Shown: positions 10,866 through 44,188 of the stretch, one piece after another | Layout of the letters: every line of letters begins with the position of its first letter | How positions within the stretch are numbered: the first letter of the stretch is position 1 | Source: an uncultured Peptococcaceae bacterium | GTDB lineage: Bacteria; Bacillota; Dehalobacteriia; UBA4068 | NCBI GenBank assembly: GCA_964372025.1 | Contig: CAYJPF010000001.1 | Coordinates: 21,696 to 85,695 of the forward strand | Length of the DNA: 64,000 nt | Reading direction: 5' to 3' | Program-made: the position numbers and the translations under genes | Notes under the pieces: model-generated | What the model was told of the DNA's origin: nothing | Seen by the model: the letters and a program-made list of their open reading frames with translations, nothing else | Database searches by the model: none

Positions 10866-10896
10866 TTTATTTCCTCCTTATAATTATTCGTATTAA

Positions 10897-11454
10897 TTAG
10901 TTAGCTACTACTTCAAAAGTGAAAGCAGGAACTCTTTGGTTTGCACCTATTTGAGAGCCATCAGTAATAGAAATGTAAGTTTCTCTTACTAGCTTCATTG
11001 AGAATGCATCAGCAGTTTGAACATCAGCCCAAGTTAATCCCATACTTCCATCTGTAGCATTTACATATGCACTTACTCCAGCAGTATAAGTTCCTAAAAG
11101 AACTGCTCCACCAGTAAGAGTGATTAAATCTCCAACCACTGGTTTAAAACCACTGAATACTTGATTAGCATCTATTGCAAAATCACGAACATCAGGATTT
11201 AGTCCTTTATAATACTTTTTATCTCCAGCTTTAGTCATAACTACTTCTGGTTCAGCAGACATCCATACGCCTAAAAGTCCACCAGTTGCTGGAGCTTCAA
11301 TTGTAAATACTTCTTCTTCATCAGCAGTTGTGCTTATAGCACCTGGTTTAAAGATCATTCCATTTTCTACTTCAGCAGTATGAACAAAACTTCTGTTTAG
11401 TGCATCTATATTCATAGCACTAACTAGTGTTTGAATTAAAACATTTTTTGCCAT
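10897..11454 (-). CDS. hypothetical head-module protein
   Basis: 185-aa Gly/Ala/Thr-rich ORF lying between the scaffold-like and capsid genes. Confidence 0.35.
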   Translation of the reverse strand: MAKNVLIQTLVSAMNIDALNRSFVHTAEVENGMIFKPGAISTTADEEEVFTIEAPATGGLLGVWMSAEPEVVMTKAGDKKYYKGLNPDVRDFAIDANQVFSGFKPVVGDLITLTGGAVLLGTYTAGVSAYVNATDGSMGLTWADVQTADAFSMKLVRETYISITDGSQIGANQRVPAFTFEVVAN

Positions 11455-11475
11455 TTTTTATTTCCTCCTTAAAAT

Positions 11476-13284
11476 TTAGTCCCAAAGACCTTTTGGTTTG
11501 TTTACATCGTTATTTTCTTTTTCAAATGGTAGTGCGATCGCTTTGACATCTGCATTAGTCTCAATCCCTGTTGAGAATACAAATGCTTTTGCATATATTG
11601 CATTCTTCCAATTGTCAATATCATTTAAGCTGAAAGTTTCAGCATCAGCTTTCCAAGAATCTAATTCTTCTTGTGGTACAACAGAACATTTTAATTGAAC
11701 ATCTGCTAATGTTGATAGTACAATTGCATCTTTCTTTTCTTTTTCAACGTTGGCTTTAAATTCAAGTAATGACTCTATGTTTGTTTTTAACTCTTCATTT
11801 TCTTTTTTGAATACAGCATATTCGGCTTTCATTTCATCTAATGACATCATAGCATCTTCTTTGTCATCATCATCATCTTTGCCTTCATCATCATCTTTGC
11901 CTTCATCATCATCTTCCATTTTTTCTACTGGCTTTTCATCTTTTTTTTCATCTTCGAAAGCTTCTCCATCTTTCTTTTCTGCGTCTTTTCCGTCTTCAGT
12001 AGAAAATTCTGTCGCTGGAACTTCAGCCTCTATGACTTTTGTTTCTTTTTCTAGCATTTTCAATAATCCTCCTATATCAGCATATTCATTAAGAGAAAAA
12101 TCTTCAGTCCATGTAAGTCTAACTTCAACCTTGCTATTCATATCAATAGAAATCTCTTTGTTATTCACAGTATAGTTTATTTTAAAGTGATCACATCCAT
12201 TCCAATTATAAATAATTACATATTCATCAGAATAATCATTTATATAAAAATCTTCAAAATATTCAGACAACGCTTCATACATCAATTCTCTTTTTTCACT
12301 ATCTAGCAAAGTGTCAAACTCTTTCACATCCATATCCATCTCTCCTTCCTGTAATTTTGTTTCAGTATTTTCTTTATTTTCAAATTCAGTAGACATACTA
12401 ATATTGGGAGTTTGAATTTCTTCATATAAACTATAAAGCCATTCTTTTCCTTCTAGTCCCCCAGATAGCATATAATTGATATACTCTTTGGTAGGTGGTT
12501 CAGTAAATTCTAACTCTGATATTTTCTTTGGAAAATACTTATGGTAATGTTTTACCTTGGTTTCACTTATTGTCTCATTATTTAATATATAATTAGCAAA
12601 TGATAATAGAATAGAGTTCGCTCCTAATTCATATTCTTTTTTCAATTCGAGAGCATACTCTACTGTATTTTTGACATCACTTGGGATATCCCATTTTTTT
12701 TCTTTAGCATAATGATATTGTTCATATGCTTTTGTTCCTACCTTTACCATTTTATCAGTAGAGAACTTAGTTATTTTAATATTGGCTCCTGGACACGCAG
12801 CAGTTCTACTTAGTCCTAAAACAGTGACTCCCATAAAACAAAAAGAACTTATCCATTCTTGCTCTTCAATAATTTCTGTTTCAAGTATCAATATTTCCAT
12901 TGATACTTCCCTATAATTATCTTGAACGAAAACATCATAAGCCCATTCAGCGTATACTTTAGAAACAATAGCATTGGCAACTAAATAGTTTTTACCATTT
13001 TCTTCCTCAAGTCTAACATCATTGTCTTTTGGGAAAAATCCAAGTATTAATTGGTCTTTCCCTTCGTGACCCATAAAGTCATTATCTTCAAACCCTGCGA
13101 CTAGAAATTTGTTATAAAGGGTAATGATTGATTCTTCTACTGCTTCTGTCTTTATTGGAAAGTTGTGTAGATTTTGACCATCGCAGCAGACCCAAATTTC
13201 TGCAATTGCCAATTGTTCATCAGAAACTTCTTCTAATAATTTAATTCTATCAATTGACAATTTTAATTTTGTTTCACTCATCAC
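11476..13284 (-). CDS. head morphogenesis / scaffold-like protein (possible protease-scaffold fusion)
   Basis: 602 aa. The C-terminal third carries an acidic low-complexity stretch (KDDDEGKDDDEGKDDDDDKED, from an 18-bp repeat) plus coiled coil. The N-terminal domain has His (MGHEG) and Ser (REVSMEI) residues reminiscent of HK97-type prohead proteases. Confidence 0.3.
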   Translation of the reverse strand: MMSETKLKLSIDRIKLLEEVSDEQLAIAEIWVCCDGQNLHNFPIKTEAVEESIITLYNKFLVAGFEDNDFMGHEGKDQLILGFFPKDNDVRLEEENGKNYLVANAIVSKVYAEWAYDVFVQDNYREVSMEILILETEIIEEQEWISSFCFMGVTVLGLSRTAACPGANIKITKFSTDKMVKVGTKAYEQYHYAKEKKWDIPSDVKNTVEYALELKKEYELGANSILLSFANYILNNETISETKVKHYHKYFPKKISELEFTEPPTKEYINYMLSGGLEGKEWLYSLYEEIQTPNISMSTEFENKENTETKLQEGEMDMDVKEFDTLLDSEKRELMYEALSEYFEDFYINDYSDEYVIIYNWNGCDHFKINYTVNNKEISIDMNSKVEVRLTWTEDFSLNEYADIGGLLKMLEKETKVIEAEVPATEFSTEDGKDAEKKDGEAFEDEKKDEKPVEKMEDDDEGKDDDEGKDDDDDKEDAMMSLDEMKAEYAVFKKENEELKTNIESLLEFKANVEKEKKDAIVLSTLADVQLKCSVVPQEELDSWKADAETFSLNDIDNWKNAIYAKAFVFSTGIETNADVKAIALPFEKENNDVNKPKGLWD

Positions 13285-13466
13285 TCATCTCCTTTCTTGT
13301 AAATTTCAATTAATTTTATAGTTTTATCAGATTGTGCATATATATAATTGCCATGTTTGTCTTTTGATAAAATGGGAATACCTTTCCCTATTAAATATTC
13401 TCCAATATCTTTATCTACAACAATTATATTATCTTTATTTAATTTATTATAATTACATACAAACAC
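13281..13466 (-). CDS. hypothetical small protein
   Basis: 61-aa ORF whose end overlaps the next gene start. Confidence 0.3.
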   Translation of the reverse strand: MFVCNYNKLNKDNIIVVDKDIGEYLIGKGIPILSKDKHGNYIYAQSDKTIKLIEIYKKGDE

Positions 13467-14013: not shown

Positions 14014-15591
14014 CTACTCTTGTATATTATTGCTTCTTTCTGAAGCTCCACTATCTGTTAACTGAGATGTATCTGATTTTGGTCTACCACCCTCGTTTCC
14101 TGTTGCACTATCAGTATATATATTCAACATAGGCATCAAATTATCTGCAAATTTAGAAGCCTTTGCTTTTTCCATTTGTTTTTCTAAATGATGAGGATAC
14201 ATATCTAATGAAAATGCCAATCTATCAGGAAGGACAACTCCTATAGCTGATAATTCAACGAATTCTTTTCTTCTGTCTTTGATATCTTCTGTAGTATTTA
14301 TTCCACCCAACTTGATTTTAAATTTAAAATCTTTGGTCAAACTATTTATTTGATAGTTTAAGAAATCTTCAAAATATGCATACATATAAGATAATGTCAT
14401 AACATCTACATCTAAAGATAATTGAGTCTCCATTATATTTGGCTTGTCTGATGTAAATATCAATCTCGAATTTACGCCCGATAATGACGTTGTTGTTCTA
14501 GCATAGTCCTCCAGCATATTTCTAGTACTGCCCTCAAAGTCCAATGTTTTTATATCTTCAAAAGGAGCTGCTCCTGTCTTAATAACATCTCCAATTCCTT
14601 TCTTTATCAGATTTAAGAACTTTCCAGCAGTAACATCAGAAATACCAATCATATCTTTCATATGACCGCCTTTGGCATCTTTAATCATTGGTATTAAACC
14701 AACCATAACTTTGGTTGCCTCAATCATATATTTGTTAGTTTGCAAATTTCTAATCAATGGTTGTAACACCACATCTTGAAATAATGGTGCTAAAAAAGGT
14801 ATGTTTGTCACTAATTCAGGTGTTAACTTCCAAGCCCAAAATCCATCCAATGGCGAAGTTTGAGTCCACAATGTCCAATTTCCATTTCTATTTTGAGCAG
14901 ACGATGCAGGTTTATAATTTCCTTCATTGTCATACATTACCCTATTGTACATTTCTTTAAATACATCAGGATACATATTTATATCTACTCCAGAATTTAA
15001 AAACCAATACATATTAAAATCAAACAACAGTCCATAAGACCATCTTCCTGTAATTTTGCAATACTTACTAGGCAATTCTTGGAGTGTGTATTTATCTCCT
15101 TCATTCCTTATAACCCAAAATGAAGAATCTTTACGCAATAATTCCCTCATTACTTTTGAGAATTCTTGTTTTATATCAAATTTATCTAAAAAATCACATA
15201 GGATAGCATAATCTTTTTTATATTTACTACTATTATAATCTTTAGCTTGAGCATTTTTGCATATTATATCTTTTACAGAGAAAGATAATAAATGTGCTAG
15301 GTAATAAAGCATTCTTTTATATATCATTGAAGTTAATTCAAAGAATTCTGAATACCCGATTAATTTTTCTTCATTGTTTTTCGGATCAGCCAAAGCTCTT
15401 TCAATTTCTTCTTTTGTTCCTTTTAAGGGATTGAGGTTGACATCTTGCATTTTTGCATTTATCAAATCTGGTGTAAATACATTTGGGTATCCACCATTAT
15501 ATGCTTGACGTGCAAATTCTAAGACATCAAATAGTTGTTCTTCTGTGATATTATCAGCATTTTGTTTATTTTTTTTGTTATATCCAGCCAT
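14014..15591 (-). CDS. portal protein candidate
   Basis: 525-aa ORF immediately downstream of the terminase large subunit, the usual portal position and size. Confidence 0.45.
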   Translation of the reverse strand: MAGYNKKNKQNADNITEEQLFDVLEFARQAYNGGYPNVFTPDLINAKMQDVNLNPLKGTKEEIERALADPKNNEEKLIGYSEFFELTSMIYKRMLYYLAHLLSFSVKDIICKNAQAKDYNSSKYKKDYAILCDFLDKFDIKQEFSKVMRELLRKDSSFWVIRNEGDKYTLQELPSKYCKITGRWSYGLLFDFNMYWFLNSGVDINMYPDVFKEMYNRVMYDNEGNYKPASSAQNRNGNWTLWTQTSPLDGFWAWKLTPELVTNIPFLAPLFQDVVLQPLIRNLQTNKYMIEATKVMVGLIPMIKDAKGGHMKDMIGISDVTAGKFLNLIKKGIGDVIKTGAAPFEDIKTLDFEGSTRNMLEDYARTTTSLSGVNSRLIFTSDKPNIMETQLSLDVDVMTLSYMYAYFEDFLNYQINSLTKDFKFKIKLGGINTTEDIKDRRKEFVELSAIGVVLPDRLAFSLDMYPHHLEKQMEKAKASKFADNLMPMLNIYTDSATGNEGGRPKSDTSQLTDSGASERSNNIQE

Positions 15592-15611
15592 CTATACTCC
15601 TTTCTATAAAA

Positions 15612-18557
15612 TTAAAATAACATTGCATATCCTTCAAGTAATTTAAAATCATCTTCTAATGTTCTCTTAGGATTTATAACGTTATCTCTTCTTATTGTAT
15701 GTAATGCATATCCTAACATTGCCATGCAATAGGCACGGTCATCATGCATCTTATTTTCTTTATCAGGGGACAAATCGTATCTGTATCCACCATTTGTTCC
15801 ATCAAATCTATATATATTTACTAATTCTTCTTTTAAAAAATCTATTTGTACAAAAGCATCTTTTTCATCTTGTGAAAGCATATGAATCTCTTCTTTATCA
15901 TTATCTGTTATAAAAAATTCTTTGCCATCATACTCTAATGGGAAAGATATCAAATCTAAACTAAGCATTTCAATCAACGCATCGTACATTACTGTTTTAT
16001 ATTTTTTTGGAGACAGCAATTTTAATTTATCAATTGCGTCTGGGAAATTATATAATTCTTCCTTGCTTTCCTCAGAATCTATAAGTCCTCTATGAAAATT
16101 ACCTGATGCATCATACCAATCTTCCATAAGATAATCAGCAATTGTAACTCCGCCTCCTCCTGAACCAGAATCTATAGATAAAGAATGTATATTTTCATAA
16201 TCGGCTGACATTTTGCCATTATAATCCAACATCATTTTCTTTATATAGTCAATTTGTTCTGGAGTTCTAATTGGAGTTCTTTTCTTCTTCATAATATCTG
16301 AGAAAGAAACGCAATTAATAATATCCATTTTATATCCAACATTTTCATCTAAATATATTTTTCCGACAAGCACTATGGAGTTATCATAGCTACGAGCTGG
16401 GTCGAAAGCCAATACAAATAAGCTTCTATCATCATTGTAAAATATTGGCAAGTACTTGTGCGAATTTCTCACGATCATTGCCCTTTTAATAGGCTGTGAA
16501 TCTCCTCCATCTTTAGTAAATATATTTTTGTACTCCCTCATAGCTTTTTCGGGATTTTGTCTCATTGCTAAATCAATTGTCTCTTGATCTATAAGAGGCG
16601 TTACGGGCTTTCCTTTCATTGTAGGGGCAAGTACCATATCGCAATTTATATCTGCAACAAAATAATTCGGATTCCCCATAAACATTTGCATTGAATATTC
16701 TTTATACATTGCGAAAAAATGTGTATCAACAGAAGATGCTGATGATGCAAGTATTCTTTGATTTGGTAAACTTTTAGGAGCTAATAAATTTGCAACTTGA
16801 TCTTCTTCAGATCCATATTTTGCTGAAGCATTTTGTGTTAAGAATGGCTCAGTTGCAATAAACAATTCATTTGGAGTAAATCCAGATTCATCGTAAAAAT
16901 TTAAATTAGAACGTATTCCTCTCAATCTATCATAAGCTCCCGATAAAGAGGTGATTTCTGATCCATTAAATAATTCGCAAGAATATCTTCCGTCTTTATG
17001 TGTAAACCCATCACTCTGAGAATTGCTACGCACTAATTCCATCGCAAATATATCTGTGCCACCAGTTATACTAGTGATCTCTTTTTTTGCAGTTTTTTCT
17101 ATCTTTTTAAATGTCTCCTGAGATTGACTTGCAGTCGATGCTAACAAATATGTTTTGTGACTTGGAAACAACATTGATTTAGCCATTATAAATGGAGCTG
17201 ACAGGAACGAATTATGTGTAACGGTGTGTTTTCCGCCACATATAAATAGTCCAGTGTTGTTGCCAACTGTGATGCATCTCATAGGTTTCTTAATTTTTGT
17301 TTTCCTTACGTCTACGATTGCTTTTGTCTGAGATATATCTGAAGATTTGTCTAATAACCTATCATATTTTCTTTTAAGTTTAAAAACTGCCATTTCTTTA
17401 CTTGCTGAAAAGTGAATTATATAAGTAAAAGCTTTTGTGCCATCTTTTTTTACATAGTTTATATTTTCTTTTTTTGTTATATTATTTTTTATTCCTAACG
17501 AAGATAATAATTGAGAAACTTGACTTATCAAATTATAATTAGTTTGGGAAAAACTACATCTTCCACTTTTATCAACATACCCATCACTATCCATAAGCCC
17601 TTGCAATAACTCTAGTCTTTGCTCTACAGAAGCATATAGATATTCATTTGGAATATGTTTGTTTTTGTATAAGTTCATTTCTCTGATTTTATTTAAAAAT
17701 GATCTTTTTTTCGAGCTCATTTTCGAACATCCATTTTCTTTAAAATCTTTTTCAAGGTCAAAAATAAATAAAAAACAATTATTTCTACTTTTATCTTTTT
17801 TTGTCTTAAAATAAGAAATTTTATTCTTAGTATTTTCAATCAAATCAGAAATATCGCTTTCAGCACATGTGATGTGAGAAGCACTACTAGTCCCATCTCC
17901 TAACCAATATCCTAGTATATATGGATCGATCTGCAAATTGTGTGATTTAGCATATTGAAGAGGTTTGCACAAAGGAATATGGAATCTATATTCTTTATTT
18001 CCATCTGTTCTTTCTATTAAAAATTTGCTATATAAAAAATCTGTATTTCTCAAACATGTCTGTCTTTCTCTTCTTTGCATAAATGACTTATCATAAACAG
18101 ACCATAAATGACTAGAATTTGCCTCAATTACTTCTCCATCTTCAAATTCAACTTCATAAACTTCTTCAAAGATAATAGGATTCAAATGTATGACTTCTGT
18201 TAATTTTCCATCATCGCCAAATATCTTATCTCCTATTTTTAATTCTCCAATTGTTTTTGTTACATTGTATCTATTTTCTTTTTCTCCTCTGTCTTTTGTC
18301 GAGACGTATACTTTGGTATCAAGAGTGACCGCTTTACCAGCCGATCTGTTCATTGCCCATAGACAAAAGGGAGTTCCCCAACTATTCATGAATACATATT
18401 TTTGAAAATCCATCAGATATATTCCAAAAAAATGTTCTACAAAACTAATTGGATTCTTTCTGCCCCATTGTATAATTTCACACCATTTTAAATATGCCTC
18501 ATATTTTCTTGTTGACATCTCGGTAGGAGTTTGTTTTATTATAATATTAGAATTCAT
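15612..18557 (-). CDS. terminase large subunit containing a LAGLIDADG intein in the Walker A motif
   Basis: The N-extein ends ..AMNRSAGK and the C-extein begins SFLSAPF.. Splicing restores the P-loop GKS. The intein has block A (AVTLDTKV), block B (EANSSHLW), two LAGLIDADG motifs (ILGYWLGDGT, LLQGLMDSDGYV) and a terminal HN followed by Ser+1. Confidence 0.7.
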   Translation of the reverse strand: MNSNIIIKQTPTEMSTRKYEAYLKWCEIIQWGRKNPISFVEHFFGIYLMDFQKYVFMNSWGTPFCLWAMNRSAGKAVTLDTKVYVSTKDRGEKENRYNVTKTIGELKIGDKIFGDDGKLTEVIHLNPIIFEEVYEVEFEDGEVIEANSSHLWSVYDKSFMQRRERQTCLRNTDFLYSKFLIERTDGNKEYRFHIPLCKPLQYAKSHNLQIDPYILGYWLGDGTSSASHITCAESDISDLIENTKNKISYFKTKKDKSRNNCFLFIFDLEKDFKENGCSKMSSKKRSFLNKIREMNLYKNKHIPNEYLYASVEQRLELLQGLMDSDGYVDKSGRCSFSQTNYNLISQVSQLLSSLGIKNNITKKENINYVKKDGTKAFTYIIHFSASKEMAVFKLKRKYDRLLDKSSDISQTKAIVDVRKTKIKKPMRCITVGNNTGLFICGGKHTVTHNSFLSAPFIMAKSMLFPSHKTYLLASTASQSQETFKKIEKTAKKEITSITGGTDIFAMELVRSNSQSDGFTHKDGRYSCELFNGSEITSLSGAYDRLRGIRSNLNFYDESGFTPNELFIATEPFLTQNASAKYGSEEDQVANLLAPKSLPNQRILASSASSVDTHFFAMYKEYSMQMFMGNPNYFVADINCDMVLAPTMKGKPVTPLIDQETIDLAMRQNPEKAMREYKNIFTKDGGDSQPIKRAMIVRNSHKYLPIFYNDDRSLFVLAFDPARSYDNSIVLVGKIYLDENVGYKMDIINCVSFSDIMKKKRTPIRTPEQIDYIKKMMLDYNGKMSADYENIHSLSIDSGSGGGGVTIADYLMEDWYDASGNFHRGLIDSEESKEELYNFPDAIDKLKLLSPKKYKTVMYDALIEMLSLDLISFPLEYDGKEFFITDNDKEEIHMLSQDEKDAFVQIDFLKEELVNIYRFDGTNGGYRYDLSPDKENKMHDDRAYCMAMLGYALHTIRRDNVINPKRTLEDDFKLLEGYAMLF
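17211..18332 (-). mobile_element. intein (about 374 aa) with LAGLIDADG homing-endonuclease domain, inside the terminase large subunit
   Basis: Boundaries were mapped at codon level: Ala1 at 18332-18330 directly after GK, and the HN terminus at 17216-17211 followed by Ser. The Ala1 start resembles KlbA-type inteins. Confidence 0.6.
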
Positions 18558-19669
18558 CAGCCAGTATTCCCACCTAACTTAACAATTTCTTGTTTTAAAT
18601 ATTCATTTTCTTCTTTTGATAGCCTTAAATTTTCTTCTAATGATTTGTTGCTTTTATCTAAAGACATCATTTTTTCTCTTTGTTCTTTCAGCATTGTTGC
18701 ATAGTCATTCTCATCAAACATAAGTTGAGATGCTATACTTTTATTGCTTATTTCGGCTATTTTTATGAAAGCTTCTGATGTTTTTATATCAAAAAAGTTT
18801 TCATCAACTGGCTTTATTTTCTTTTCTCTGAGCTCTTTTAATTTTCCAGATAAAGTATCTGATCCTTTTGTACTTCCATCTTGTTTACTTGAAGTAAGAC
18901 GATTTTCCTTTGCAAATGACATTATTTGCATAGTAAGCATTTTTTTTATTTCCATCAATTGTTTTAGCTTCCCACTTTGAGACTCTAAATTTACTGTATC
19001 TTTAGTCAAATTACTTATAACATTATTCATAATGTCTAATTGGGAAAACATCTTTGTAACCTCAATTACAGCAGATAATTTAAAACTGTCTCCTACTGTA
19101 CTCTCATCTAAATAATTCAATATAGTATTATATAAAAATGGTCTTTCGTCTGCATTAGAATCGGCAAAAGGGTCGTACTTAATCAATTCAATTACTTCAT
19201 TCATATTTTCTAAATCTTTAGCGTCGAGGACTTTGAATTCCTCTTGTGTTAAAGAATTCTTAACTTTCATCGTCTGTACTGCCGAATTAGAGAAATCCTT
19301 ATTAGAATATTGTGGCAATGAATTTATTTTTTGTATATATAATTTAATTACACTTGTATTCAAAGTGTCTTTTTGTTCTACTAGAGATTTTGCTAGAACT
19401 TCATCGTAATACATATCTAACATCTGACATATTTTAAATACAGAAAATTTTTCATCATCGTATTTCAATACAAGGCTATCATATAAATCAACAATGCATT
19501 TTTTACATATCCATAATTTATTATCATTACCTTTGGTTAGCATACTATAACTATTGTAAAAAGATAATATAACATAGCTTTTCCCACAATATGTGCAATA
19601 ATAATCTTTACTTCTCTTTTCTCTTGTTTTTTCTTCAATTGTTTCACTCATTTGTCTCGTCACTCCCAT
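18557..19669 (-). CDS. hypothetical protein with CxxC zinc-finger-like motifs and a coiled coil (terminase small subunit candidate)
   Basis: 370-aa ORF whose stop overlaps the terminase start. It carries CTYCG...CKKC and a C-terminal coiled coil. Confidence 0.25.
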   Translation of the reverse strand: MGVTRQMSETIEEKTREKRSKDYYCTYCGKSYVILSFYNSYSMLTKGNDNKLWICKKCIVDLYDSLVLKYDDEKFSVFKICQMLDMYYDEVLAKSLVEQKDTLNTSVIKLYIQKINSLPQYSNKDFSNSAVQTMKVKNSLTQEEFKVLDAKDLENMNEVIELIKYDPFADSNADERPFLYNTILNYLDESTVGDSFKLSAVIEVTKMFSQLDIMNNVISNLTKDTVNLESQSGKLKQLMEIKKMLTMQIMSFAKENRLTSSKQDGSTKGSDTLSGKLKELREKKIKPVDENFFDIKTSEAFIKIAEISNKSIASQLMFDENDYATMLKEQREKMMSLDKSNKSLEENLRLSKEENEYLKQEIVKLGGNTG

Positions 19670-19746
19670 CTATCTCAATTTTCATTTATAATTCTTAAAA
19701 AAGAGTACACTTTTTATAAATGTACTCTTTTTGAAAAATTATATTA

Positions 19747-20967
19747 TTAATTTAAAATTATATTCTTTGTTCCAATATGACCATGAATATCATTAAATTC
19801 ATATAGTCTTACAGAAGCTTTCGATCCAACTCTCAAAGAATCTGCATATGGACAACTCCCTATAAAAGATGGAGACATTAATAATGTCACATCATTGCTA
19901 ACTCCTTCGCTTACAGATAGTGTTTTTGCAGTATGTTTGTGTCCCATAAAACAAATATCATAAAATATACGGTGTTGCACAGACAAGTCTTTTAAAATTG
20001 TTTCTGTGTTTTTGACTTGGTGTCCGTGTATAGCGATACATTTTGTATTAAAAATATCAAATGCTAAAAAATCTGTTTCATAATCTTTATGTATTTTAAC
20101 TCTAGGATTATTTACTAGAAGATCATATACATAATTTATAATTATAAGCTCCATATCTTCAGTTGCTATTTCGCTTGCCTTTGTACTCAATGGTCTTATC
20201 TGCGTATGATTTGACATAGGCACATGATAATATTCTACATCGCAATTTATTGAAAGTTCATTTAAGAAATTAGCTAGAATTCTTGATATCTCCACAACAC
20301 TCATTACCACAGATGTCTCATTTAAAGTCAAATCACTAATTCTTAACATTCCTTGAATAGTGTCCCCAAGGTTTAAAACTTTGATTTTATTAATCTTATT
20401 TTTGATTATTTCCTTATTTACTTCGCAAAGCATTTTCTCAAATCTTTGAATACATATTTCTCTTGAATATTTATTGTTCATTCCAACAAAATGAGAGTTA
20501 TAGTGTATGTCTGAAATAGCCAAAACATATTCCTTATTTTCATCTAAATAGAGATTATTGCTATATACAAAATCTGGAACGTCTAATGTCTCAATAGCAT
20601 TTCTTACGTTTTCATAAAACAATTCGAATCTACTGTGAATTCTCAATGTTTTAAGCTGTTCATTTTTTGTCGCTTGAAGTTTATATCTTTCTCTAATATA
20701 TTCTTCTTTTGCTTCTTCAATTTTTGATATTGCATCTGATTGTCCATTATCTGATATTTCACTTAATGCATCTTGATAACCATCATTAAATCCCTCAGAA
20801 TAAGGTCTAAACCATTTCCTATAAGCGTCAGAACTCTTATTTTCTCCACTCTCGCTATTTAGCAAATCTGCAATTTCTTCATTGGTTAAATTATATAGTT
20901 TTCTATTCCTGAAAAGTCTGATCTTGTATTCTTTTAAAGTCTCATCTTCTCTTTTTTGAAGCTCCAA
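19747..20967 (-). CDS. calcineurin-like metallophosphoesterase
   Basis: Motifs LAISDIHYN (DxH), NLGDTIQG (GDxx), SNHT (GNH[DE]-like), IHGHQ and GHKHT (GHxH). Confidence 0.55.
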   Translation of the reverse strand: MELQKREDETLKEYKIRLFRNRKLYNLTNEEIADLLNSESGENKSSDAYRKWFRPYSEGFNDGYQDALSEISDNGQSDAISKIEEAKEEYIRERYKLQATKNEQLKTLRIHSRFELFYENVRNAIETLDVPDFVYSNNLYLDENKEYVLAISDIHYNSHFVGMNNKYSREICIQRFEKMLCEVNKEIIKNKINKIKVLNLGDTIQGMLRISDLTLNETSVVMSVVEISRILANFLNELSINCDVEYYHVPMSNHTQIRPLSTKASEIATEDMELIIINYVYDLLVNNPRVKIHKDYETDFLAFDIFNTKCIAIHGHQVKNTETILKDLSVQHRIFYDICFMGHKHTAKTLSVSEGVSNDVTLLMSPSFIGSCPYADSLRVGSKASVRLYEFNDIHGHIGTKNIILN

Positions 20968-21032
20968 TAAATCAACTCCTTTAACACAGTGGGATACTAA
21001 CCGTTAGTACCCCACACTTCAATTTTTCCAAT

Positions 21033-21317
21033 CTATTTTACAGGAATTTCAGAGGCAATTCTCTTTAATTCACTTGTATTATCTATTGTTATTTTATTCT
21101 TAGGTGCGATATCAATCACTTCTTGTGTTTTAGGATTGATGCCCTTTCTAGCTTTACTAGTTTTAATTTTTGCAGTAAACATACCATCCTTAACAACTCC
21201 ATCAGTTGCAAGTCCCTTTGCTCTTGCTTCATTAATTGCATCAAGGCAAGTTCCAACATCTTTTTGTGTAAATCCAGTTGCATCTGCTACTGCTTTAATT
21301 AATTCTACTTTAGTCAT
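21033..21317 (-). CDS. HU/IHF-family DNA-binding protein
   Basis: 94 aa. MTKVELIKAVA..GFTQKDV and the GINPKTQEVIDI arm are typical of HU. Confidence 0.7.
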   Translation of the reverse strand: MTKVELIKAVADATGFTQKDVGTCLDAINEARAKGLATDGVVKDGMFTAKIKTSKARKGINPKTQEVIDIAPKNKITIDNTSELKRIASEIPVK

Positions 21318-21360
21318 TTTATCTTATTCTCCTTTTCGCTTTTCGCTTTTCGCTTTTCTC

Positions 21361-22037: not shown

Positions 22038-22447
22038 TTACATCTCATCTGCTAGTCTTGAAATAGGATTTCTATAATCTGATTTAAGTTTAATACATCC
22101 AAATTGTTTATTTCCCCTAAATATCTCTATCATTCTTTCCATTCCAGCATCTTCTTCGTTTAGAACATCTTTTTGCTCTAAGATATCTCCTTCAATTAAC
22201 AATTTGCATCCAAATTTGCATCGTTGTATAATTGTTTTCATTTGATATATATTTATATTTTGGGCTTCTGTTACAATAACAACATCTCTCTCTCCAAATT
22301 CAACTCCTCTAATTTTACTTAAAGGAATGACTTCTAATTTTTCTTCATAAAGAAGAGTTGTTACTAAATCTGATCCACCTAATTTTGTTTTTAAAATCAT
22401 ACCTATATTATCATCCAAAAGTTTGTCTGTAAGACTACCTGGCAAAA
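22038..22447 (-). CDS. PIN-PhoH (YlaK-like) ATPase, exon 2
   Basis: PhoH C-terminal half: LPGSL..., IRGVEF, VVIVTEAQN (Walker B/DEAQ), GDILEQKD. It joins exon 1 in frame (T + TT gives Phe). Confidence 0.55.
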
Positions 22448-23741
22448 CGGTTTTCACTATAACTTTCATTATAGTCCAGACTATATCTTAATCTTAATTA
22501 ATTTTTATTTTTTAGATTTAAATATTTATCCCTTTTACGTTCTAAATATCTTTCGCAATTCTCATAATACAATTTGTCCATTATCTTTAAAACTTGTTGT
22601 TTTCCTCTCCATGCACAATGCCATGCATTTGTTTTAAATATCTTGTTGGATTTATTCTTTTTAATCATTTTGTCAATAATTTGTTGTATTTGCATTGTTA
22701 TGTTTTTAGAATAACTTGTAAAATGCAATGTTACATCTTTACCTTCTTCATCATAAGTAATGCATCCATCTCCATCAAACAATCCTCTTACAAAATCAAC
22801 TCTATATTTGTCAGGGATAAATTCTAATTTAAGAGAATCAATTTCGTATGTTTTATTTGGAACAATATTGTATTGCTTTAAGTCATCAAACATTTTTTTA
22901 CTTACAAATCCAATAGAACAATAGCCATTTCCTCTATTGTCATATTCAATTTTTGCATCCAAATTCAAATCATTTTTAAACTTTATAATTGTTTCAACGT
23001 CATCTTTCTTTAATCCAAACCTTATTTGATAAGTAGTATTTTGTATATTTCTAACATTGCCGTCAGCAAACAAAAATCCTATCCAATATGCTTTGAGTGG
23101 ACTATCTATTACTTCAAAATAGTCTTCATTAATAAATTTGTTTACAAAATTATTGTTTGGTTTACTTATTTCATTTTTCCTTATTATAAAACTTAAAGTA
23201 TTTGTATCTACATTATATTCTTTTGAAAGTTGGGATATCGTATATTTGTTACTCTCATATTTGTTTCTTATATCAGCTATCTCATCTTCTGTAAATTTTT
23301 TGCGTTTTCTTCCGCCTTTTATATAAACATTATTATTTCTCAGTATTCTATTTATCTGAGAGTATGACAAATCAAACACTTTTGTCATTTTCAATATAGA
23401 TACATTATTATTTGTATAATATTCTATCACTTTATTTTTTAGATTTAAATCCATTTTGTTTCCTTTAATTAATTAAGATTTGTTGTACTTCGAGATTTTA
23501 CTCCCTACTCCCTCACGGGATAGTCGTTGAACGTTCTCCTATTCGGAGCTTCGCTGCTGATTGCCCATTGTACTAGTACTTAGGATTTAACCATATACCA
23601 TCCAATTAATTTTTTCTGCTTTCGCAACTATTCCATTTAAGCATATTTCATCTTTCTGTTTTAGTTTAATTGGCTTTAGGGTATTCCAGCAATTCACAAC
23701 ATTTTCAATGCATATCACTATACAAGGGGGCTATGCCACTA
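22448..23741 (-). mobile_element. group I intron with a LAGLIDADG homing endonuclease ORF in P8
   Basis: Conserved P (AAUUGCUGGAAUA), Q (AAUCAGCAGC), R (GUUCAACGACUA, 23516-23532) and S (AAGAUAUAGUC, 22479-22489) elements are present. The exon 1 terminal U and an omega-G at 22448 define the splice sites. The spliced junction reads EPIG-F-LPGSLTDK, matching the PhoH consensus GFLPG. Confidence 0.6.
22498..23454 (-). CDS. LAGLIDADG homing endonuclease (intron-encoded) with N-terminal HTH repeats
   Basis: Two LAGLIDADG motifs (AYWIGFLFADGN and FVRGLFDGDGC). RBS AAAGGAAAC. Confidence 0.7.
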   Translation of the reverse strand: MDLNLKNKVIEYYTNNNVSILKMTKVFDLSYSQINRILRNNNVYIKGGRKRKKFTEDEIADIRNKYESNKYTISQLSKEYNVDTNTLSFIIRKNEISKPNNNFVNKFINEDYFEVIDSPLKAYWIGFLFADGNVRNIQNTTYQIRFGLKKDDVETIIKFKNDLNLDAKIEYDNRGNGYCSIGFVSKKMFDDLKQYNIVPNKTYEIDSLKLEFIPDKYRVDFVRGLFDGDGCITYDEEGKDVTLHFTSYSKNITMQIQQIIDKMIKKNKSNKIFKTNAWHCAWRGKQQVLKIMDKLYYENCERYLERKRDKYLNLKNKN

Positions 23742-24549
23742 ACCCTATTGGTTCACTTCCTTTTAACTCTTTGCAAGTTGATAACATATATATTTTGTTT
23801 ATATTTCCATTTTCCAATGCAGACAATGCATATCCTAATGAAAGAATTGTTTTTCCACTGCCACTTCGTCCAAACAAACAAGTGATGTTATTTGTTGAAA
23901 TACTGTCAAACGCACATCTTTGAACCACATCAAATGGCTTAACTTCTCCAATATATTTATTTGTAAATTTTTTATGAGAAAGTTCAATGTGTTCTTCTCC
24001 ATTCCATTTTAGAATACTCACAACATCATCTGTCTTGTCTTTCACAAGGATATATTCGTTAATTGACAAATCATAAATGTTTTTATCAAGATTTTCATAA
24101 AAATATGCTAATTCATCGTCGGTGTTTATTTTAACAAATTTATATCCTTTGAAGATTTCTTTAGCTTTATAGTCATTAAAATCTCTAACTCTAATACCTA
24201 ATGCCCTACATTTTTCAATCATATTTAAATCTTGAGTAAGCATTATCGCATCTCTATCTAAAGTTTCTTGAACGTGTAATGCACTTAATACAATTCTATT
24301 ATCGGGTCTTGTTATATCTAAATCTAATATATTTACCCTTGTTGCATTTGGCATTATATATATAAATTTATCTTTCAGCTCATTGATTTTTCTCATTGCT
24401 TGACGTGCTTTAAAAGATCTTGATGGATTTTCACTTGTTTTTAATTTATCTATTTCTTCTAAAACTACAATCGAACAATAAATTTTTTCATATTCTTCTA
24501 ATTCAACATCATTTAAAAGAATATTAGTATCTACAATGCAAGATTTCAA
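23742..24549 (-). CDS. PIN-PhoH (YlaK-like) ATPase, exon 1
   Basis: TTG start at 24549 with RBS AAAGGGTGA. An N-terminal PIN domain is followed by the PhoH Walker A (GRSGSGKT). The exon ends ..EPIG with a terminal U at 23742. The ORF-track tail LVA* is intron read-through. Confidence 0.55.
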
Positions 24550-24567: not shown

Positions 24568-24732
24568 TTAAAATGACTCAATCGTATGTTTGCTCATAAC
24601 TTCACAATATTTGTAAAAGTCTCTGTCGCTTAACCAATAATGACGTTTTTTAACAGATTTCGATACTCCATCTCTTGGAATAAAACCGAATTTTTTTGCT
24701 TGTTTATACTCGGCTTTTCTAATGCTACGCAT
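24568..24732 (-). CDS. hypothetical small basic protein (not in the ORF track)
   Basis: 54-aa ORF (MRSIRKAEYKQAKKFGF...) with RBS GGAGGA 6 nt upstream, lying between two genes. Confidence 0.3.
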   Translation of the reverse strand: MRSIRKAEYKQAKKFGFIPRDGVSKSVKKRHYWLSDRDFYKYCEVMSKHTIESF

Positions 24733-24837
24733 TCACAATCCTCCAATTATTTTTACTACGAAAACTACAACTTATGAAAATTCCTTGTATTTAGGCGTTT
24801 TTTTAACACCTTAAATATATTATTACATAATATAGTT

Positions 24838-25464
24838 TTACTTCCAAATTTTGTCATAAAGCCCAACTATATTATTATCAGATAAGTTAAAATCTCCTTT
24901 ATTGCTGTAATCTACTAGTATTTTAAATCTCATCTGTTTGTAATTTTTTTGCATATCCTTGTCGTCATCCCACCCCCATTTAGACACTGTAGGATTTATT
25001 TTTTCAACATAGTCGAACAGTACAATCTCAGGAACGTGTTTCTTTTTTATCATTTCGTAAGACAATCCTGTAAATTGAGCTAAAGACGGATAAGATATTG
25101 CTATCTCATCACTATTAGTGTGTTTTGCCACACATAATAAAGCCAAAGCTGTTTTTCTACAATTTGCATTGTCAAATCTTTTATTAATAATATCAATGTC
25201 TTGCTGACTAATATTTATGTCAACCTTATCGCAGAATACAAAATCATCATTTTTTACCACTAGCATTATTGCTTTATTAAGGTCAAAGTAATGCTTATGT
25301 CCATATTTATTTTCCCATTCCTCTAATGCTTCTTTTATCTGCAATGCACTAAATCCTTTATTGTGATAATATTTTATAAGATTTAAATACGCTGAAAAGA
25401 AATATTCTTTTTTAAATGGAGTACCATTCAGTAACTCCTCACTTCGCTGTAACTCGTTAAGCAT
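24838..25464 (-). CDS. hypothetical protein
   Basis: 208-aa ORF in the replication/nucleotide module. Confidence 0.4.
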   Translation of the reverse strand: MLNELQRSEELLNGTPFKKEYFFSAYLNLIKYYHNKGFSALQIKEALEEWENKYGHKHYFDLNKAIMLVVKNDDFVFCDKVDINISQQDIDIINKRFDNANCRKTALALLCVAKHTNSDEIAISYPSLAQFTGLSYEMIKKKHVPEIVLFDYVEKINPTVSKWGWDDDKDMQKNYKQMRFKILVDYSNKGDFNLSDNNIVGLYDKIWK

Positions 25465-25482: not shown

Positions 25483-28005
25483 TTATATTTTTTCCATATC
25501 ATAAAACCTACCTAGATATTCATATTTTCCATTTTCACTCAATGATGGAAGATAAATTTCTGATTTATTTTTACTTAGATTTTCCAATACTCCTAATGGA
25601 GCAACTTTCCAAATAAAAGATTTATCTTTGTTAGAATATTTTTCATAACATAATTGTACGACAATATTTGCTAATTCTTTTTCGTTGGGGCATATCTCTT
25701 GGCATCTATCTTTATATAAATCATAATAGTGTTGCCAATCGAATTTAAATCCTATAATTTCATCTTGTGTCATATCTGGATAATACAAAGATATCCAATT
25801 TTTATACTTGCTATGATTATTAAATTTATATTGATGTTGAGCTAATTCAGCCATTTCTTTTGTGTACTCTTGAAATACTCTTTCAATTTTTTCAACTGTT
25901 TTTTTATTTAGAGGGATATTCTCATCTGTCATAATCTTATAATTAAAGTCTTTTATTTTTTGTTTATGTTTCACAGTATTTTTTTCCCATTTTTCAATTT
26001 CCCAGCATAGTCTATTCATATTGGTTTGAGTATTTGCAAATTCTGATAACCCTGCATAATAACTACTAGCGTACTTCATAAAATATGGCAGTGGTTTTGC
26101 GTATTTTGCTATATGTCTTGGTATGTTAAATATTACTCCAGTTTTAGCAAAATCGATTGCCTTTCCGTTTATAATACTTAAAATATCAACATATTTCAAG
26201 TATTTTTGTTTTGTTTCTTCTGACTTTGGATTTTTATTGATATAGCAAGTCGCAGTGTTTGATATTTCTCCTATCAAAGAATTTACTGTTCTTAATACCA
26301 ATGCAAGTAGGTTTTCTTTATTATATTCTTCATCAAGAGCTGTAATTTTATCTTCTGTATCGATTACGATTGGGATATTCCTAGGTGCTCCCTCCTTCAT
26401 AATCTCATTGTCGATAACTAAAACTAAGTCTCCATCTACGTCCGAACCATTTAGTTGTTGCAATACCAAGCTTTGCCCATTTATCATACATATATTTGAT
26501 AGGTGAGAGCACCATCTTGATATATCTGAATTTTCTACAGCATTAAGTAATACGTGTTCAGATCTTGTTATATGAGGATTTCTTTCTATAAGATATTCTC
26601 CTTTATAAGAGCCATTTAGATTATTTGTATAAAATTCATCATTATTCAAACATCCTTTAGGCTCTAATCCTCCAATATATTCCATAAACATTATTAAATC
26701 AACGCAAGATATTTTAAAAGTAGATTTAATCCACAGTTTGCCACTCTTCATTTCATTAATGTATTTTTTAAATAATGAAATTAAATATTTGCGAATACTC
26801 TCTTCTTTAAACATCTCTTCGTTCATCAACAGTGCTTTCATATAATTATTTAAAGGTTCGTGCTTTTCTTTTGTAAGCCCTAAGAAAGCATAAGAGTATA
26901 GTTTATCTCCACCTAATATTTTCTCAATCCAAGATATACTATATTTTGCCAACTTAATAAATTTATTAAATGGAAGTTCTAAATCTTGCAATATTTGATA
27001 ATTTGCACGAGTGTAAACAGGTTCTTCTTTTAAAGAAAAATTCCATTTGGCTATTCCAATGCAATGATTATATTCGTCAAATTTATTCCAATAATTCGTC
27101 CAATCTTCAAAAGTATTTTTATCTTTAAAATATTTAAAACCTTTGTACATACTCTCGGTCATAATTATCATCACGCTGTCTATCGAATGTTTCTCTCCCC
27201 AGATATCAACTATAAACTCAACGTTTCTTTCTCTTAGAAATGTCGTATAATCCATCTCGTGAGTAACCCCTTTGATAAATGGTGCACGCCACATAATACT
27301 TGTTGGCTTAGTCTTGCTTTTTAGATGTTCTTCGACTTGATATGTTATATAAGGATGGTGGATTCCCATTCCGTCAAAAACATTAATTTCATAATCGACG
27401 ACACTTTCTGAAATTCCCTTTTGCACCCATTGTTTTTCTTCTTCAGTTTCTTTATCTATATAGGTTGAATGTTCATCTATAAGATGTTTTATCTTTTGAT
27501 TTTTAATCACTTTCATATAATCTGATACAACTATAATTTTAGGCTTCCAATTTTCTATACAGTGACAAGATGATAACATCAATCCTCTATATGCAACATA
27601 CTTAGACAAAACAGTTCTATTGATTTTTAAGCCCATTGTAACACGTTCAACTAGTTGTTTTTCTATATCTTCTCTAACAAAACTTAATGTTGCTTGACGT
27701 GTCATACTAGCACTTCTCTCGGACATTATATATTTTTTATTATCAATATAAAATCCTTCTTTTATGAGCTTTGATAAATTTTCTAAATCACTTTTTCCAC
27801 TCTTAATATCTACAAAAACAATATATTTATTGTATCTGCAACTATCTTCAGTAATTAATCTGATTTGTCTAAATAGCAAATTGTCTTGTTGATTTATAGC
27901 ATATCTATTCCTATCTTTTGTTCTTTCAAAATCAAATCTAAAATCATTATCTATAATTTGTCTATAAGTAAATTTCAAAACTTGATATAATTTAGGTGCA
28001 AACAA
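25483..28005 (-). CDS. candidate single-subunit non-canonical RNA polymerase (YonO-like, beta-prime-type double-psi beta-barrel)
   Basis: 840 aa. ERNPHITRSEH is followed 38 aa later by NGSDVDGDLVLV, reproducing the spacing of beta-prime NRAPTLHRL....NADFDGDQMAVHV (catalytic Asp triad). Its size is close to YonO (about 830 aa). Confidence 0.45.
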   Translation of the reverse strand: MFAPKLYQVLKFTYRQIIDNDFRFDFERTKDRNRYAINQQDNLLFRQIRLITEDSCRYNKYIVFVDIKSGKSDLENLSKLIKEGFYIDNKKYIMSERSASMTRQATLSFVREDIEKQLVERVTMGLKINRTVLSKYVAYRGLMLSSCHCIENWKPKIIVVSDYMKVIKNQKIKHLIDEHSTYIDKETEEEKQWVQKGISESVVDYEINVFDGMGIHHPYITYQVEEHLKSKTKPTSIMWRAPFIKGVTHEMDYTTFLRERNVEFIVDIWGEKHSIDSVMIIMTESMYKGFKYFKDKNTFEDWTNYWNKFDEYNHCIGIAKWNFSLKEEPVYTRANYQILQDLELPFNKFIKLAKYSISWIEKILGGDKLYSYAFLGLTKEKHEPLNNYMKALLMNEEMFKEESIRKYLISLFKKYINEMKSGKLWIKSTFKISCVDLIMFMEYIGGLEPKGCLNNDEFYTNNLNGSYKGEYLIERNPHITRSEHVLLNAVENSDISRWCSHLSNICMINGQSLVLQQLNGSDVDGDLVLVIDNEIMKEGAPRNIPIVIDTEDKITALDEEYNKENLLALVLRTVNSLIGEISNTATCYINKNPKSEETKQKYLKYVDILSIINGKAIDFAKTGVIFNIPRHIAKYAKPLPYFMKYASSYYAGLSEFANTQTNMNRLCWEIEKWEKNTVKHKQKIKDFNYKIMTDENIPLNKKTVEKIERVFQEYTKEMAELAQHQYKFNNHSKYKNWISLYYPDMTQDEIIGFKFDWQHYYDLYKDRCQEICPNEKELANIVVQLCYEKYSNKDKSFIWKVAPLGVLENLSKNKSEIYLPSLSENGKYEYLGRFYDMEKI

Positions 28006-29694: not shown

Positions 29695-29861
29695 CTATCT
29701 TTCTTAAAAACTTAGAAATAACTTATAGCTTATGTTAATTATAACACACCTATTGTTTCGCATCAAGTATTTTTCATATTTTTCTTAATTTTTTTAATAT
29801 TTATAATTTTTTGACTATTCTACTTGTAGCTATTATTATAATATATATAATTGTTAAGTAT

Positions 29862-30146
29862 ATATATATACCACCCGTCCCCACCCCCACCCTCATATTA
29901 TATTCTATACATATATAATAATCCATTACAATTATATTACAAATATATTAATATTATATTATATGTATTTACTAATAATATAATACATAGTATTATATTA
30001 TTTATATATTAATATTACATAGTAATATTAATATAGTATTTATATGTAATATAATTGTAATATTATATTAATATATATGTAATTGATTATTATTAATAAA
30101 TATAATATAATATGAGGGTGGGGGTGGGGACGGGTGGTATATATAT
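29862..30146. repeat. 285-bp imperfect palindrome with perfect 44-bp GC-rich terminal arms, in the divergent intergenic region
   Basis: Left arm 29862-29905 (TATATATATACCACCCGTCCCCACCCCCACCCTCATATTATATT) is the exact reverse complement of right arm 30103-30146. The 197-bp AT-only spacer is itself imperfectly palindromic. The arms carry four G-runs (GGGTGGGGGTGGGGACGGG). Confidence 0.8.
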
Positions 30147-30211
30147 GCTATTAAAAAACGATTGTCAATACAAAAATGAAAAATAAATAAAAAATATTTT
30201 TAAAAAAGTAT

Positions 30212-41980: not shown

Positions 41981-42615
41981 TTTGTTTACCTCCTAAACGT
42001 TCAAATTTGAACGTTTTTATTCTTTTAACTCCTTAAAACGTTGCAATTTCAACGTTTCTAACTTATATTTAATATTATAATTGAAATAAATATAAATTGC
42101 AATACCTTTTTAAATTTTTTTTAGTAAAATTTACTTTTTTTTTATAGCTCTAAAAACACTACTAGAAAACACTACTAGAAAACACATTTTAAAACACTCT
42201 AAAAACATACTCTCATACTAGCATTAAATACATTAAATTCAATGCTTAGAGCTTAAAGCAGAGAGTTTTAAAATGTGATTAAAATTATCTCTGTATTGTA
42301 AGTGTAACAATAGTTTTTACTAGTAATAAAAACACTGTATGCATATATACAGATATACAGAGAAAAATCCAGCAAAGTTGTATACACTATTCTAAATATT
42401 CTGACAATTCAAAATATTCTGAAAATTTCGAAAAATCAGACATCTCAATTTGGTAAAATTTACCAATTCTACCAATATTTCCCATATATAACATAATATC
42501 CCTATATTCCCAATATTTTCCATGCACCACATATTCTACCATATATTCCATATATTGCCAATTGACCAGATCTGGTAAAATTTACCAATTCTCAATAATA
42601 AAAAAAATAAGATTT

Positions 42616-42897
42616 TTACACCTTATTTTTACTAATTACTAAATTATAGTAACTATCTTCAGCAGGAATCCATAATTCCTTGCTATCATTTATGAAGGCT
42701 CTAACGTCCTTCTCTTTTATACTATAGCAACTCATATCGCTATAACTAGCATCATCAGATACTATATTTACAAGCTCTAAAGCCTTTTCAAGTTCTTTAA
42801 AGCCTACTTGATAGCTGTCATCTTCAGCTATCATATTTAGTTTTACATTAAATATATTATCTAATATATTTAATTGTAATTGTAATTTTAAATCCAT
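42616..42897 (-). CDS. hypothetical protein
   Basis: 93-aa ORF whose start overlaps the upstream stop. Confidence 0.35.
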   Translation of the reverse strand: MDLKLQLQLNILDNIFNVKLNMIAEDDSYQVGFKELEKALELVNIVSDDASYSDMSCYSIKEKDVRAFINDSKELWIPAEDSYYNLVISKNKV

Positions 42898-43337
42898 TAT
42901 AACACCTCTTGAGGGTAGTACCCTCCATTATCCCTATTAAAATGATATAGCGTTATTGTTATACCATTTTTTCTAGTAGCATTTAATACTGCTACTAATG
43001 CCACAGTTAACCCTGTGACATACAGGTTTATATGGGCATTCCCATATTTCGACAAGCTTTCTTCAGCTTGCTCTTGCAAACCCTTTGTATCCAAAGGATT
43101 TACATTTTGAGGGAATAAATATTCGCTTATTCCCTCTATTTCATGTCGACTCTCACATAAGCCGACATTTACTTCCTCTACTACTGGAGGAACTGGAGAC
43201 ATATCTCCAATTTCCAACCAATAGTTACAATAATCAGCTAGATGGCAATTCCAACAATTGCCATTTGCAGAAGTCTGTTGACCTCTACAGAAATTATTGT
43301 TATTGTTATTGTTATTGTTATTGTTATTGTTTCTCAT
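42897..43337 (-). CDS. hypothetical protein with N-terminal poly-Asn tract
   Basis: RBS ACGGAGG. (ATTGTT)x7 at 43293-43334 encodes N13. A 5'UTR hairpin abuts the SD. Confidence 0.45.
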   Translation of the reverse strand: MRNNNNNNNNNNNNNFCRGQQTSANGNCWNCHLADYCNYWLEIGDMSPVPPVVEEVNVGLCESRHEIEGISEYLFPQNVNPLDTKGLQEQAEESLSKYGNAHINLYVTGLTVALVAVLNATRKNGITITLYHFNRDNGGYYPQEVL

Positions 43338-44176: not shown

Positions 44177-44188
44177 TTTTTCATCCTC

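Follow-up and report, generated by a model that had tools for sequence, protein, structure and literature searches.

To our knowledge, no relatives of the cellular RNA polymerases (RNAPs) are smaller than the YonO-type enzymes, and YonO is the one member studied biochemically; such enzymes are discussed as models of the single-chain ancestor of cellular RNAPs. YonO, from the Bacillus phage SPbeta, is a DNA-dependent RNAP with an essential Asp triad and a strong preference for DNA templates (Forrest et al., 2017; PMC5467207). Its start site lies upstream of yonK-yonJ, and from there it transcribes the late operon of SPbeta; it is reported to be highly processive, with little pausing, the late genes being transcribed as one operon. 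When yonO is deleted, 37 late genes fall silent and induction still takes place for the other 111 of the 148 SPbeta genes that mitomycin induces (PMC5467207). The sequence of its promoter and the need for a factor were explicitly left open in 2017 (PMC5467207). Here we describe a gene that almost certainly encodes a divergent enzyme of this type, together with its neighbour p208 (a 208-aa protein) and a short conserved element beyond it, in 64,000 nt of DNA from an uncultured Peptococcaceae bacterium (the window: contig CAYJPF010000001.1 of GCA_964372025.1, positions 21,696-85,695). Related loci carry L-numbers, among them L001 (SPbeta, 13.6 kb) and L034 (BUCT082).

A YonO-type polymerase and its relatives

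An original prediction, made from the letters of the DNA, had pointed to an 840-aa open reading frame (ORF) with beta'-like motifs. This ORF is present on the minus strand at 25483..28005, with the Shine-Dalgarno-like sequence AGGGGTGA immediately 5' of a TTG start; the start is supported because the N-terminal sequence MFAPxLYxV is kept across 55 homologues. Residues 474-484 read ERNPHITRSEH and residues 519-530 read NGSDVDGDLVLV, and the predicted gap of about 38 residues between the two motifs is found from H484 to D522. A DxDGD string arises in 0.37% of shuffled versions of the polymerase sequence.

We then sought the family of the protein. The only significant Pfam match was to RdRP (PF05183; E = 4.6e-21; residues 75-646; 75.6 bits, where the cut-off is 23.8), and PHROGs assigned the polymerase to phrog_8308 (E = 3.5e-87), a family to which no function is attached. 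By tblastn against 50,697 phage records, 42 records matched. The best were a human-gut phage contig (42.6%) and the Thomasclavelia phages TR-TP1/TP2 (40.7%), which bear the annotation 'RNA-dependent RNA polymerase'; these were followed by the SPbeta group including yonO (SPBc2), at 27% identity over polymerase residues 77-642 (E = 7e-27), and then by Enterocloster phages and the C. botulinum phages c-st and D-1873. Pairwise BLASTP against YonO aligned ~590 residues at 27% identity (E = 2e-33), pairing RNPHITRSEH with RSPHLFREHG of YonO and DVDGD with DNDGD; the mutagenic primer of the inactive YonO 3D>3N variant identifies DNDGD as the experimentally essential triad (PMC5467207).

Eight residues are invariant in all two-barrel polymerases according to Ruprich-Robert and Thuriaux, and in QDE-1 these are D709, R738, K743, R962, P964, D1007, D1009 and D1011 (PMC2919709). 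The window polymerase has all eight, as D211, R240, K245, R475, P477, D522, D524 and D526. In barrel 1 the D-R spacing of 29 and the R-K spacing of 5 are the same as in QDE-1, and R475 to D522 spans 47 residues, versus 45 in QDE-1. All eight are invariant across the 55 homologues, which are 48-69% identical.

An AlphaFold2 (AF2) model built with the homologue alignment as input reached a predicted local distance difference test score (pLDDT) of 92.2 and a predicted template modelling score of 0.87, and this predicted structure contains two double-psi beta-barrels in one chain. Foldseek against the PDB placed it with the two-barrel polymerases QDE-1 and RDR2 (E ~2e-20), followed by 8f72, 'Phage P32 gp64 RNA polymerase' (E = 1.3e-5); beta' chains of multisubunit RNAPs appeared only above E = 1e-3. 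Sequence searches of PDB chains found no polymerase, returning only a chance UL16 match for the single sequence and only a chance L31 match for a profile of 55 sequences, so the polymerase is tied to solved structures by fold only. There is no solved YonO structure among the PDB entries searched. Because no primase-polymerase, archaeo-eukaryotic primase (AEP) or other unrelated family matched in the Pfam, PHROG or fold searches, the outcome that the original prediction had named as counting against itself did not appear. Its YonO-type reading is instead borne out by direct homology to YonO, by the PF05183 match and by the fold matches to QDE-1 and RDR2, and the protein is almost certainly a YonO-type enzyme, a single polypeptide of ~100 kDa with an active site formed from two double-psi beta-barrels.

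The family is known and moderately large, and the polymerase is therefore a further member rather than a new kind of enzyme. A word-indexed search found 439 homologues, the closest being one identical NCBI protein, the next 69% identical and most ~50% identical, and a HMMER scan of 1.84 billion 50%-representatives found 1372 proteins at E <= 1e-3, 889 at <= 1e-10 and 218 at <= 1e-30. Genome matches lie in Clostridia, namely Diplocloster, Anaerolentibacter, Faecalibacillus, and metagenome-assembled genomes of Lachnospiraceae and Oscillospiraceae. Several relatives have broken genes: those of L018, L019 and L020 (about 10001-13400) and of L024 (2741-3115) carry insertions with stop codons, probably group I introns, whose positions coincide exactly with the DxDGD codons and with other conserved motifs, and many database fragments of the family begin or end at residues 523-525. 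The window gene, unlike these, is uninterrupted.

Compared with YonO, the window polymerase has in common a chain of ~840 aa, the two-barrel site, DxDGD and PF05183, and the same genes follow downstream in SPbeta and the window (HU, YonJ-like, YonG-like, terminase). The two differ in that identity is 27% and the C-terminal 190 residues of the window protein are not alignable with YonO. Further, the window gene is paired with a separate p208, whereas yonO has no p208 neighbour and YonO ends in a Zn-ribbon tail that in BUCT082 belongs to a p208-like protein. The hosts of the window's relatives are Clostridia and not Bacillus, and its late genes are without the 1.7-kb non-coding RNA (ncRNA) spacer of SPbeta. 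Closer is a PF05183 clade of Clostridia phages (TR-TP1/TP2, Enterocloster phage PMBT24 and prophages of Diplocloster, Anaerolentibacter and Faecalibacillus), with 41-69% identity over the full length, the same polymerase-p208 pair and the same downstream late genes. The window protein is nonetheless a distinct lineage, and its conserved element differs from that of clade B. QDE-1 and RDR2 (PDB 2J7N, 7Y7P, 7W84), whose biology is RNA silencing, have the fold and active-site signature in common with the polymerase at 12-17% identity in structural alignments, with no match at the sequence level. The crAss-like phi14:2 gp66, Thermus P74 gp62 / '8f72 gp64' and P23-45 gp96 have no detectable sequence similarity to it and differ in size, in domain context (virion-packaged or fused to a tape measure) and in phage group. 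Multisubunit beta' is marked by a clamp, a bridge helix, a trigger loop, NADFDGD and a separate beta subunit, a description that the polymerase does not fit. T7-type RNAPs are functional analogues only: they too are single phage chains, made early by host RNAP for later genes, and a promoter of ~20 nt is possibly recognised likewise, but their right-hand fold is unrelated and there is no homology.

Proposed roles of host and phage RNA polymerases

All genes from ~29.7 kb down to position 1 lie on the minus strand, in the order RecU-like, NT5C, deoxynucleoside monophosphate (dNMP) kinase, polymerase and p208; then a 54-aa ORF, an intron-split PIN-PhoH gene, ClpP and HU; then a YonJ-like exonuclease, a YonG-like protein, large terminase, portal and further structural genes. 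A sigma-A-type promoter (29766-29738) heads the RecU / NT5C / dNMP-kinase / polymerase / p208 operon, and a similar promoter is found in L024. The pattern TTGACA-N13-15-TGNTAT has 20 matches in the window against 0.43 expected: 17 on the coding strand of the early region (46-59 kb), 2 at the head of a plus-strand cluster, and none on the coding strand between 1 and 29.7 kb. We infer that strong host-type promoters are common in the early regions and lacking in the 25-kb late module downstream. Intrinsic terminators lie inside the late block at 19.7, 9.7 and 4.4 kb, with no space behind them for new promoters.

This layout of promoters and terminators, taken with the homology to YonO, leads us to propose that host RNAP makes the polymerase and that the polymerase transcribes the late block. 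Host sigma-A RNAP would transcribe the operon from the promoter at its head. The phage polymerase, DNA-dependent and processive, would then copy the ~25-kb late module into a single long transcript, reading through the internal intrinsic terminators; the module comprises the small ORF, the genes for PhoH, ClpP, HU, exonuclease, terminase and portal, and those for the head and tail. More tentatively, initiation would take place at or beside the conserved element (24809-24835), where p208 possibly helps by binding DNA. By homology, RNA synthesis by the polymerase is predicted to depend on DNA and on the triad, and its template specificity is likewise predicted from YonO. That the polymerase transcribes the phage late genes is probable, and a YonO-type polymerase with a late-transcription programme is, with high confidence, the best overall explanation of the locus.

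The early region has regulatory features of its own. It holds ~17 near-identical strong sigma-A-type promoters at 46352-59411 (minus), with others at 30211 and 33883 (plus); each consists of an AT-rich upstream region, TTGACA, a 17-nt spacer and TGnTATnnT, is followed by the conserved leader AAGTTAAAGTTAAA, and drives small early genes. The 13-bp palindrome GGTAAAWTTTACC occurs in 23 copies against 0 expected, at 42452-58498, all in the early region and mostly intergenic; it is not terminator-like and is probably the binding site of a dimeric regulator. Arrays of a 9-bp repeat with a consensus near CAGAATATT occupy non-coding DNA at 43660-43850, 44710-45020 and 46550-46825 and resemble iterons or a centromere. 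Upstream of the polymerase operon, the divergent intergenic region at 29851-30157 is an imperfect palindrome of ~300 bp, with 146-nt arms that are 77% complementary, an extremely AT-rich core and GC-rich outer ends (CCACCCGTCCCCACCCCCACCCTCA). The viral contig L024 starts within a homologue of this palindrome, and the SPbeta packaging/opening site between yonR and yonP is at the syntenic position; the palindrome may be a pac site or an origin.

The p208 protein and the conserved element beyond it

Of the 22 related loci that have downstream sequence, 21 carry a p208 homologue 2-200 nt past the polymerase gene, and in look-ups that started from distant p208 homologues, all three overlap a PF05183 gene at its end. 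In Enterocloster phage PMBT24 this position is occupied by an ORF of 240 aa with weak similarity to p208. In the Spbetavirus BUCT082 the polymerase gene is followed by an overlapping 278-aa ORF that the p208 profile matches at 18 bits and whose C-terminal Zn ribbon is 40% identical over 45 residues to the extreme C-terminus of YonO. The p208 hidden Markov model (HMM) found nothing near the polymerase gene of C. botulinum phage D-1873. The window p208 has no Pfam or PHROG match itself; Pfam HTH_36 is matched by 6 of the 27 family members, and the AF2 model of p208 has a pLDDT of 86. Given the tight linkage to the polymerase and the winged-helix and HTH_36 matches, p208 is predicted to be a DNA-binding protein genetically locked to the polymerase. 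That it is a factor of the polymerase is a tentative reading.

The conserved element lies just beyond p208. Its first 22 nt are identical in L032, though the polymerases are 59% identical, and close variants occur in L031, L033 and L024; its 20-nt core TATATTATGTAATAATATAT has no other match in the window at <=3 mismatches. The ~50% identity clade carries tTTATATGAATACTAnnAATGTG at the corresponding place, and the exact 11-mer TATGAATACTA occurs in 13 loci of that clade, always co-oriented with the polymerase gene. Among the 19 loci with related elements, 15 have the element starting -11 to +42 nt from the p208 stop. The 13.6-kb SPbeta locus has a single copy of the core ATGAATAYTA (L001 8926), against 0.28 expected on both strands, and the element sequence in P_YonO is ATGAATATTA. 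Of the primers used for primer extension at P_YonO, the forward one begins at L001 8928, which is position 60573 of AF020713, and the reverse one anneals at 9146-9172, and the core lies inside the amplicon; the published start-site coordinate is 2225998 of the B. subtilis 168 genome (PMC5467207). In BUCT082 the P_YonO/ncRNA region is 95% identical to that of SPbeta and the polymerase is 25% identical to YonO (L034 3260-8960).

Other identities for the element were set aside. It does not behave as the start of a small ORF ('MNT...'), there being no Shine-Dalgarno sequence, ATG-TAA in the window clade and downstream repeat periods of 13-14; it has no -35 box and no TATAAT-like -10 box of a sigma-A promoter; and it has no hairpin with a T-run of a terminator. 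Directly after the element, at least seven relatives carry phage-specific tandem repeats of period 13-14 in 3-11 copies (L004 6120-6200, L013, L014, L017 5917-6068, L032, L003, L007); the window has no tandem repeats there. The 1.7-kb yonN-yonK spacer of SPbeta holds a match to the Rfam DUF3800-VIII RNA (47.5 bits against a gathering score of 40.2) and a sub-threshold match to the skipping-rope RNA, the stretches concerned being L001 10027-10092 and 8673-8782.

The element is our best candidate for the family's promoter, a reading that we place only a little short of probable. That polymerase, p208 and element together form the promoter-recognition system of YonO-type RNAPs is a more doubtful proposal. 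In such a system a short promoter with a core near ATGAATAYTA would be common to Bacillus SPbeta and the Clostridia phages, and a fast-evolving winged-helix protein would act as the specificity or recruitment factor; that protein may bind the 13-14-nt tandem repeats found after the element in many relatives, and the Zn-ribbon tail in common suggests that in SPbeta a part of it may be fused to the polymerase.

Several observations weigh against our explanation of the locus. What we say of the polymerase's function rests on 27% identity to YonO, and among solved structures it is RNA-dependent enzymes that come closest. Transcription of the entire minus-strand block could in principle start from the sigma-A promoter at 29766. 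The p208 fold matches only generic winged-helix proteins, weakly (E ~0.1), and around yonO in SPbeta the p208 HMM has no match. Relative to the motif, the start site in SPbeta is bracketed only to L001 8928-9146, and the window element differs from the clade-B / SPbeta core: because ATG-T-AATAATA replaces ATG-AATACTA, the two align only with a 1-nt gap. Being AT-rich and partly palindromic, the element could also be an operator. This last alternative, in which the enzyme is still a late-gene RNAP and the element serves p208 autoregulation or another purpose with the promoter elsewhere, for example near the hairpin at 20968-21032, is possible though not probable. The palindrome ATATTAT-GTA-ATAATAT is typical of dimeric repressor sites, the SPbeta YonO start site lies after the HU gene yonN rather than directly after yonO, and a strong hairpin follows HU in both the window and L024. 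Against these stand the position of the sole SPbeta ATGAATAYTA, which falls in the P_YonO amplicon where ~0.003 would be expected (scaled from 0.28), the conservation of the P_YonO region in BUCT082 despite the divergence of its polymerase, and the constant orientation of the element with the polymerase gene.

The two remaining alternatives concern the polymerase itself. It is improbable that polymerase and p208 form a replication module, with p208 as an origin-binding initiator and the polymerase making a primer or activating transcript at the origin, even though the neighbours (RecU, NT5C, dNMP kinase, PhoH, HU, exonuclease) belong to DNA metabolism. The HTH_36 family, matched by six p208 members, is common in replication initiators, the weak fold matches of p208 include ORC/Cdc6 winged helices, and the period 13-14 repeats after the element in at least seven relatives are iteron-like. 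However, loss of yonO silences the 37 late genes and the other 111 of the 148 SPbeta genes can still be induced; in the window the element is followed by late genes directly, with no such repeats; and more origin-like structures lie elsewhere, at the 300-bp palindrome and the 9-bp arrays at 43-47 kb. It is more improbable still that the polymerase is an RNA-dependent enzyme that copies or amplifies phage or host RNA instead of transcribing DNA, as the name of its best Pfam family, its best structural matches (QDE-1, RDR2) and the annotation of relatives in TR-TP1, PMBT24, Anaerolentibacter and Gehongia would have it. Those database names come from the Pfam label and not from experiments, and YonO, the one bacterial or phage member that has been characterised, shows a strong preference for DNA templates and serves to transcribe late genes. 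The window polymerase is 27% identical to YonO, against the 12-17% to the eukaryotic enzymes in structural alignments, and it has no RNA-silencing partners beside it, the gene order being that of a phage late-transcription module. We therefore regard the public label 'RNA-dependent RNA polymerase' for the Clostridia-phage clade as probably misleading.

Gene neighbourhood and implications

The order yonO, yonN (HU), yonK, yonJ ... yonG of SPbeta matches that of the window, syntenic loci carry the Pfam labels YonJ_N and YonG_N, and L032, a contig of 111 kb, shows full synteny with the window. Features are collected in Table 1. The HU homologue, which the original prediction had set next to the polymerase gene, is transcribed in the same direction but is not adjacent, lying 4.2 kb downstream; an HU gene also follows the YonO-like gene in SPbeta, TR-TP1, PMBT24, D-1873, L027 and L032. 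A small basic ORF resembling the 54-aa one is seen, by eye only, at the same place in L024, L031, L032, L013, L014 and L027.

Table 1. Features of the polymerase locus, in window coordinates
Feature	Position	Strand	Basis
Sigma-A-type promoter TTGATG-17-TATAAT, TG extension	29738..29766	minus	promoter scan, 10/12 matches + TG
YonO-family single-chain two-barrel RNA polymerase gene, 840 aa (almost certain)	25483..28005	minus	ORF, TTG start
D211 ... R240 ... K245, first (beta-like) barrel, equivalent of QDE-1 D709, R738, K743	27271..27375	minus	spacing
RxP motif R475-N-P477, equivalent of Rpb1 R446/P448 and QDE-1 R962/P964	26575..26583	minus	signature comparison
Catalytic Mg-binding Asp triad D522-V-D524-G-D526, beta'-like barrel	26428..26442	minus	aligned with YonO DNDGD
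p208, 208-aa winged-helix protein, candidate DNA-binding specificity or accessory factor	24838..25464	minus	18 nt downstream of polymerase gene
Conserved element CTATATTATGTAATAATATATTTAAGG, candidate cognate (late) promoter or control site	24809..24835	minus	3 nt after p208 stop
Small basic ORF, 54 aa, first gene past the conserved element	24568..24732	minus	GGAGG ribosome-binding site
HU homologue, syntenic with SPbeta yonN	21033..21317	minus	Pfam Bac_DNA_binding, E 1.6e-16
YonJ-like exonuclease	19747-20967	minus	37% identity to SPbeta yonJ; PHROGs
YonG-like protein	18557-19669	minus	PHROGs
Large terminase with intein	15612-18557	minus	PHROGs; LAGLIDADG_3 and Hom_end domains
Portal	14014-15591	minus	PHROGs
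Start of presumed target late module (exonuclease to portal)	14014..20967	minus	synteny

Mobile elements interrupt two genes of the block. A group I intron (region 22459-23751, minus) divides the PIN-PhoH gene into two parts, 23731-24549 and 22038-22469. The intron matches the full model of Rfam RF00028 at 29.5 bits (E = 3.4e-5), below the gathering score, and holds a LAGLIDADG endonuclease ORF (22498-23454); its DNA at 23521-23735 shows 81% identity to part of Staphylococcus phage phiIPLA-RODI. Megablast of window positions 20-32 kb against phages returned only this 215-bp intron match, and Rfam at gathering scores and a tRNA scan found nothing in the window. The large terminase (981 aa) carries an intein, since LAGLIDADG_3 and Hom_end domains lie inside it at residues ~302-386; the L032 terminase (949 aa) has the same domains. 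Smaller repeats are an (AAAGCG)n-like repeat at 21318-21360, just upstream of the HU gene, and a 15-nt tandem repeat, TTCCTCATTATCTAT, in 5 copies at 9527-9601 within the ORF at 8792-9703. Between HU and exonuclease, at 20968-21032 (minus), lies a hairpin with a 12-bp stem, GTGGGGTACTAAC GG TTAGTATCCCAC, that has no T-run; L024 has a different hairpin between these two genes.

The window thus adds to the YonO-type enzymes a divergent, confidently modelled member from phages whose relatives inhabit gut Clostridia. Further, p208 and the adjacent conserved motif may mark the promoter system of these enzymes. With a partner protein and a ~25-nt element linked to the mapped P_YonO, how a two-barrel polymerase without sigma finds its promoter becomes testable and, if the proposal is true, a compact orthogonal transcription system for Firmicutes could follow.

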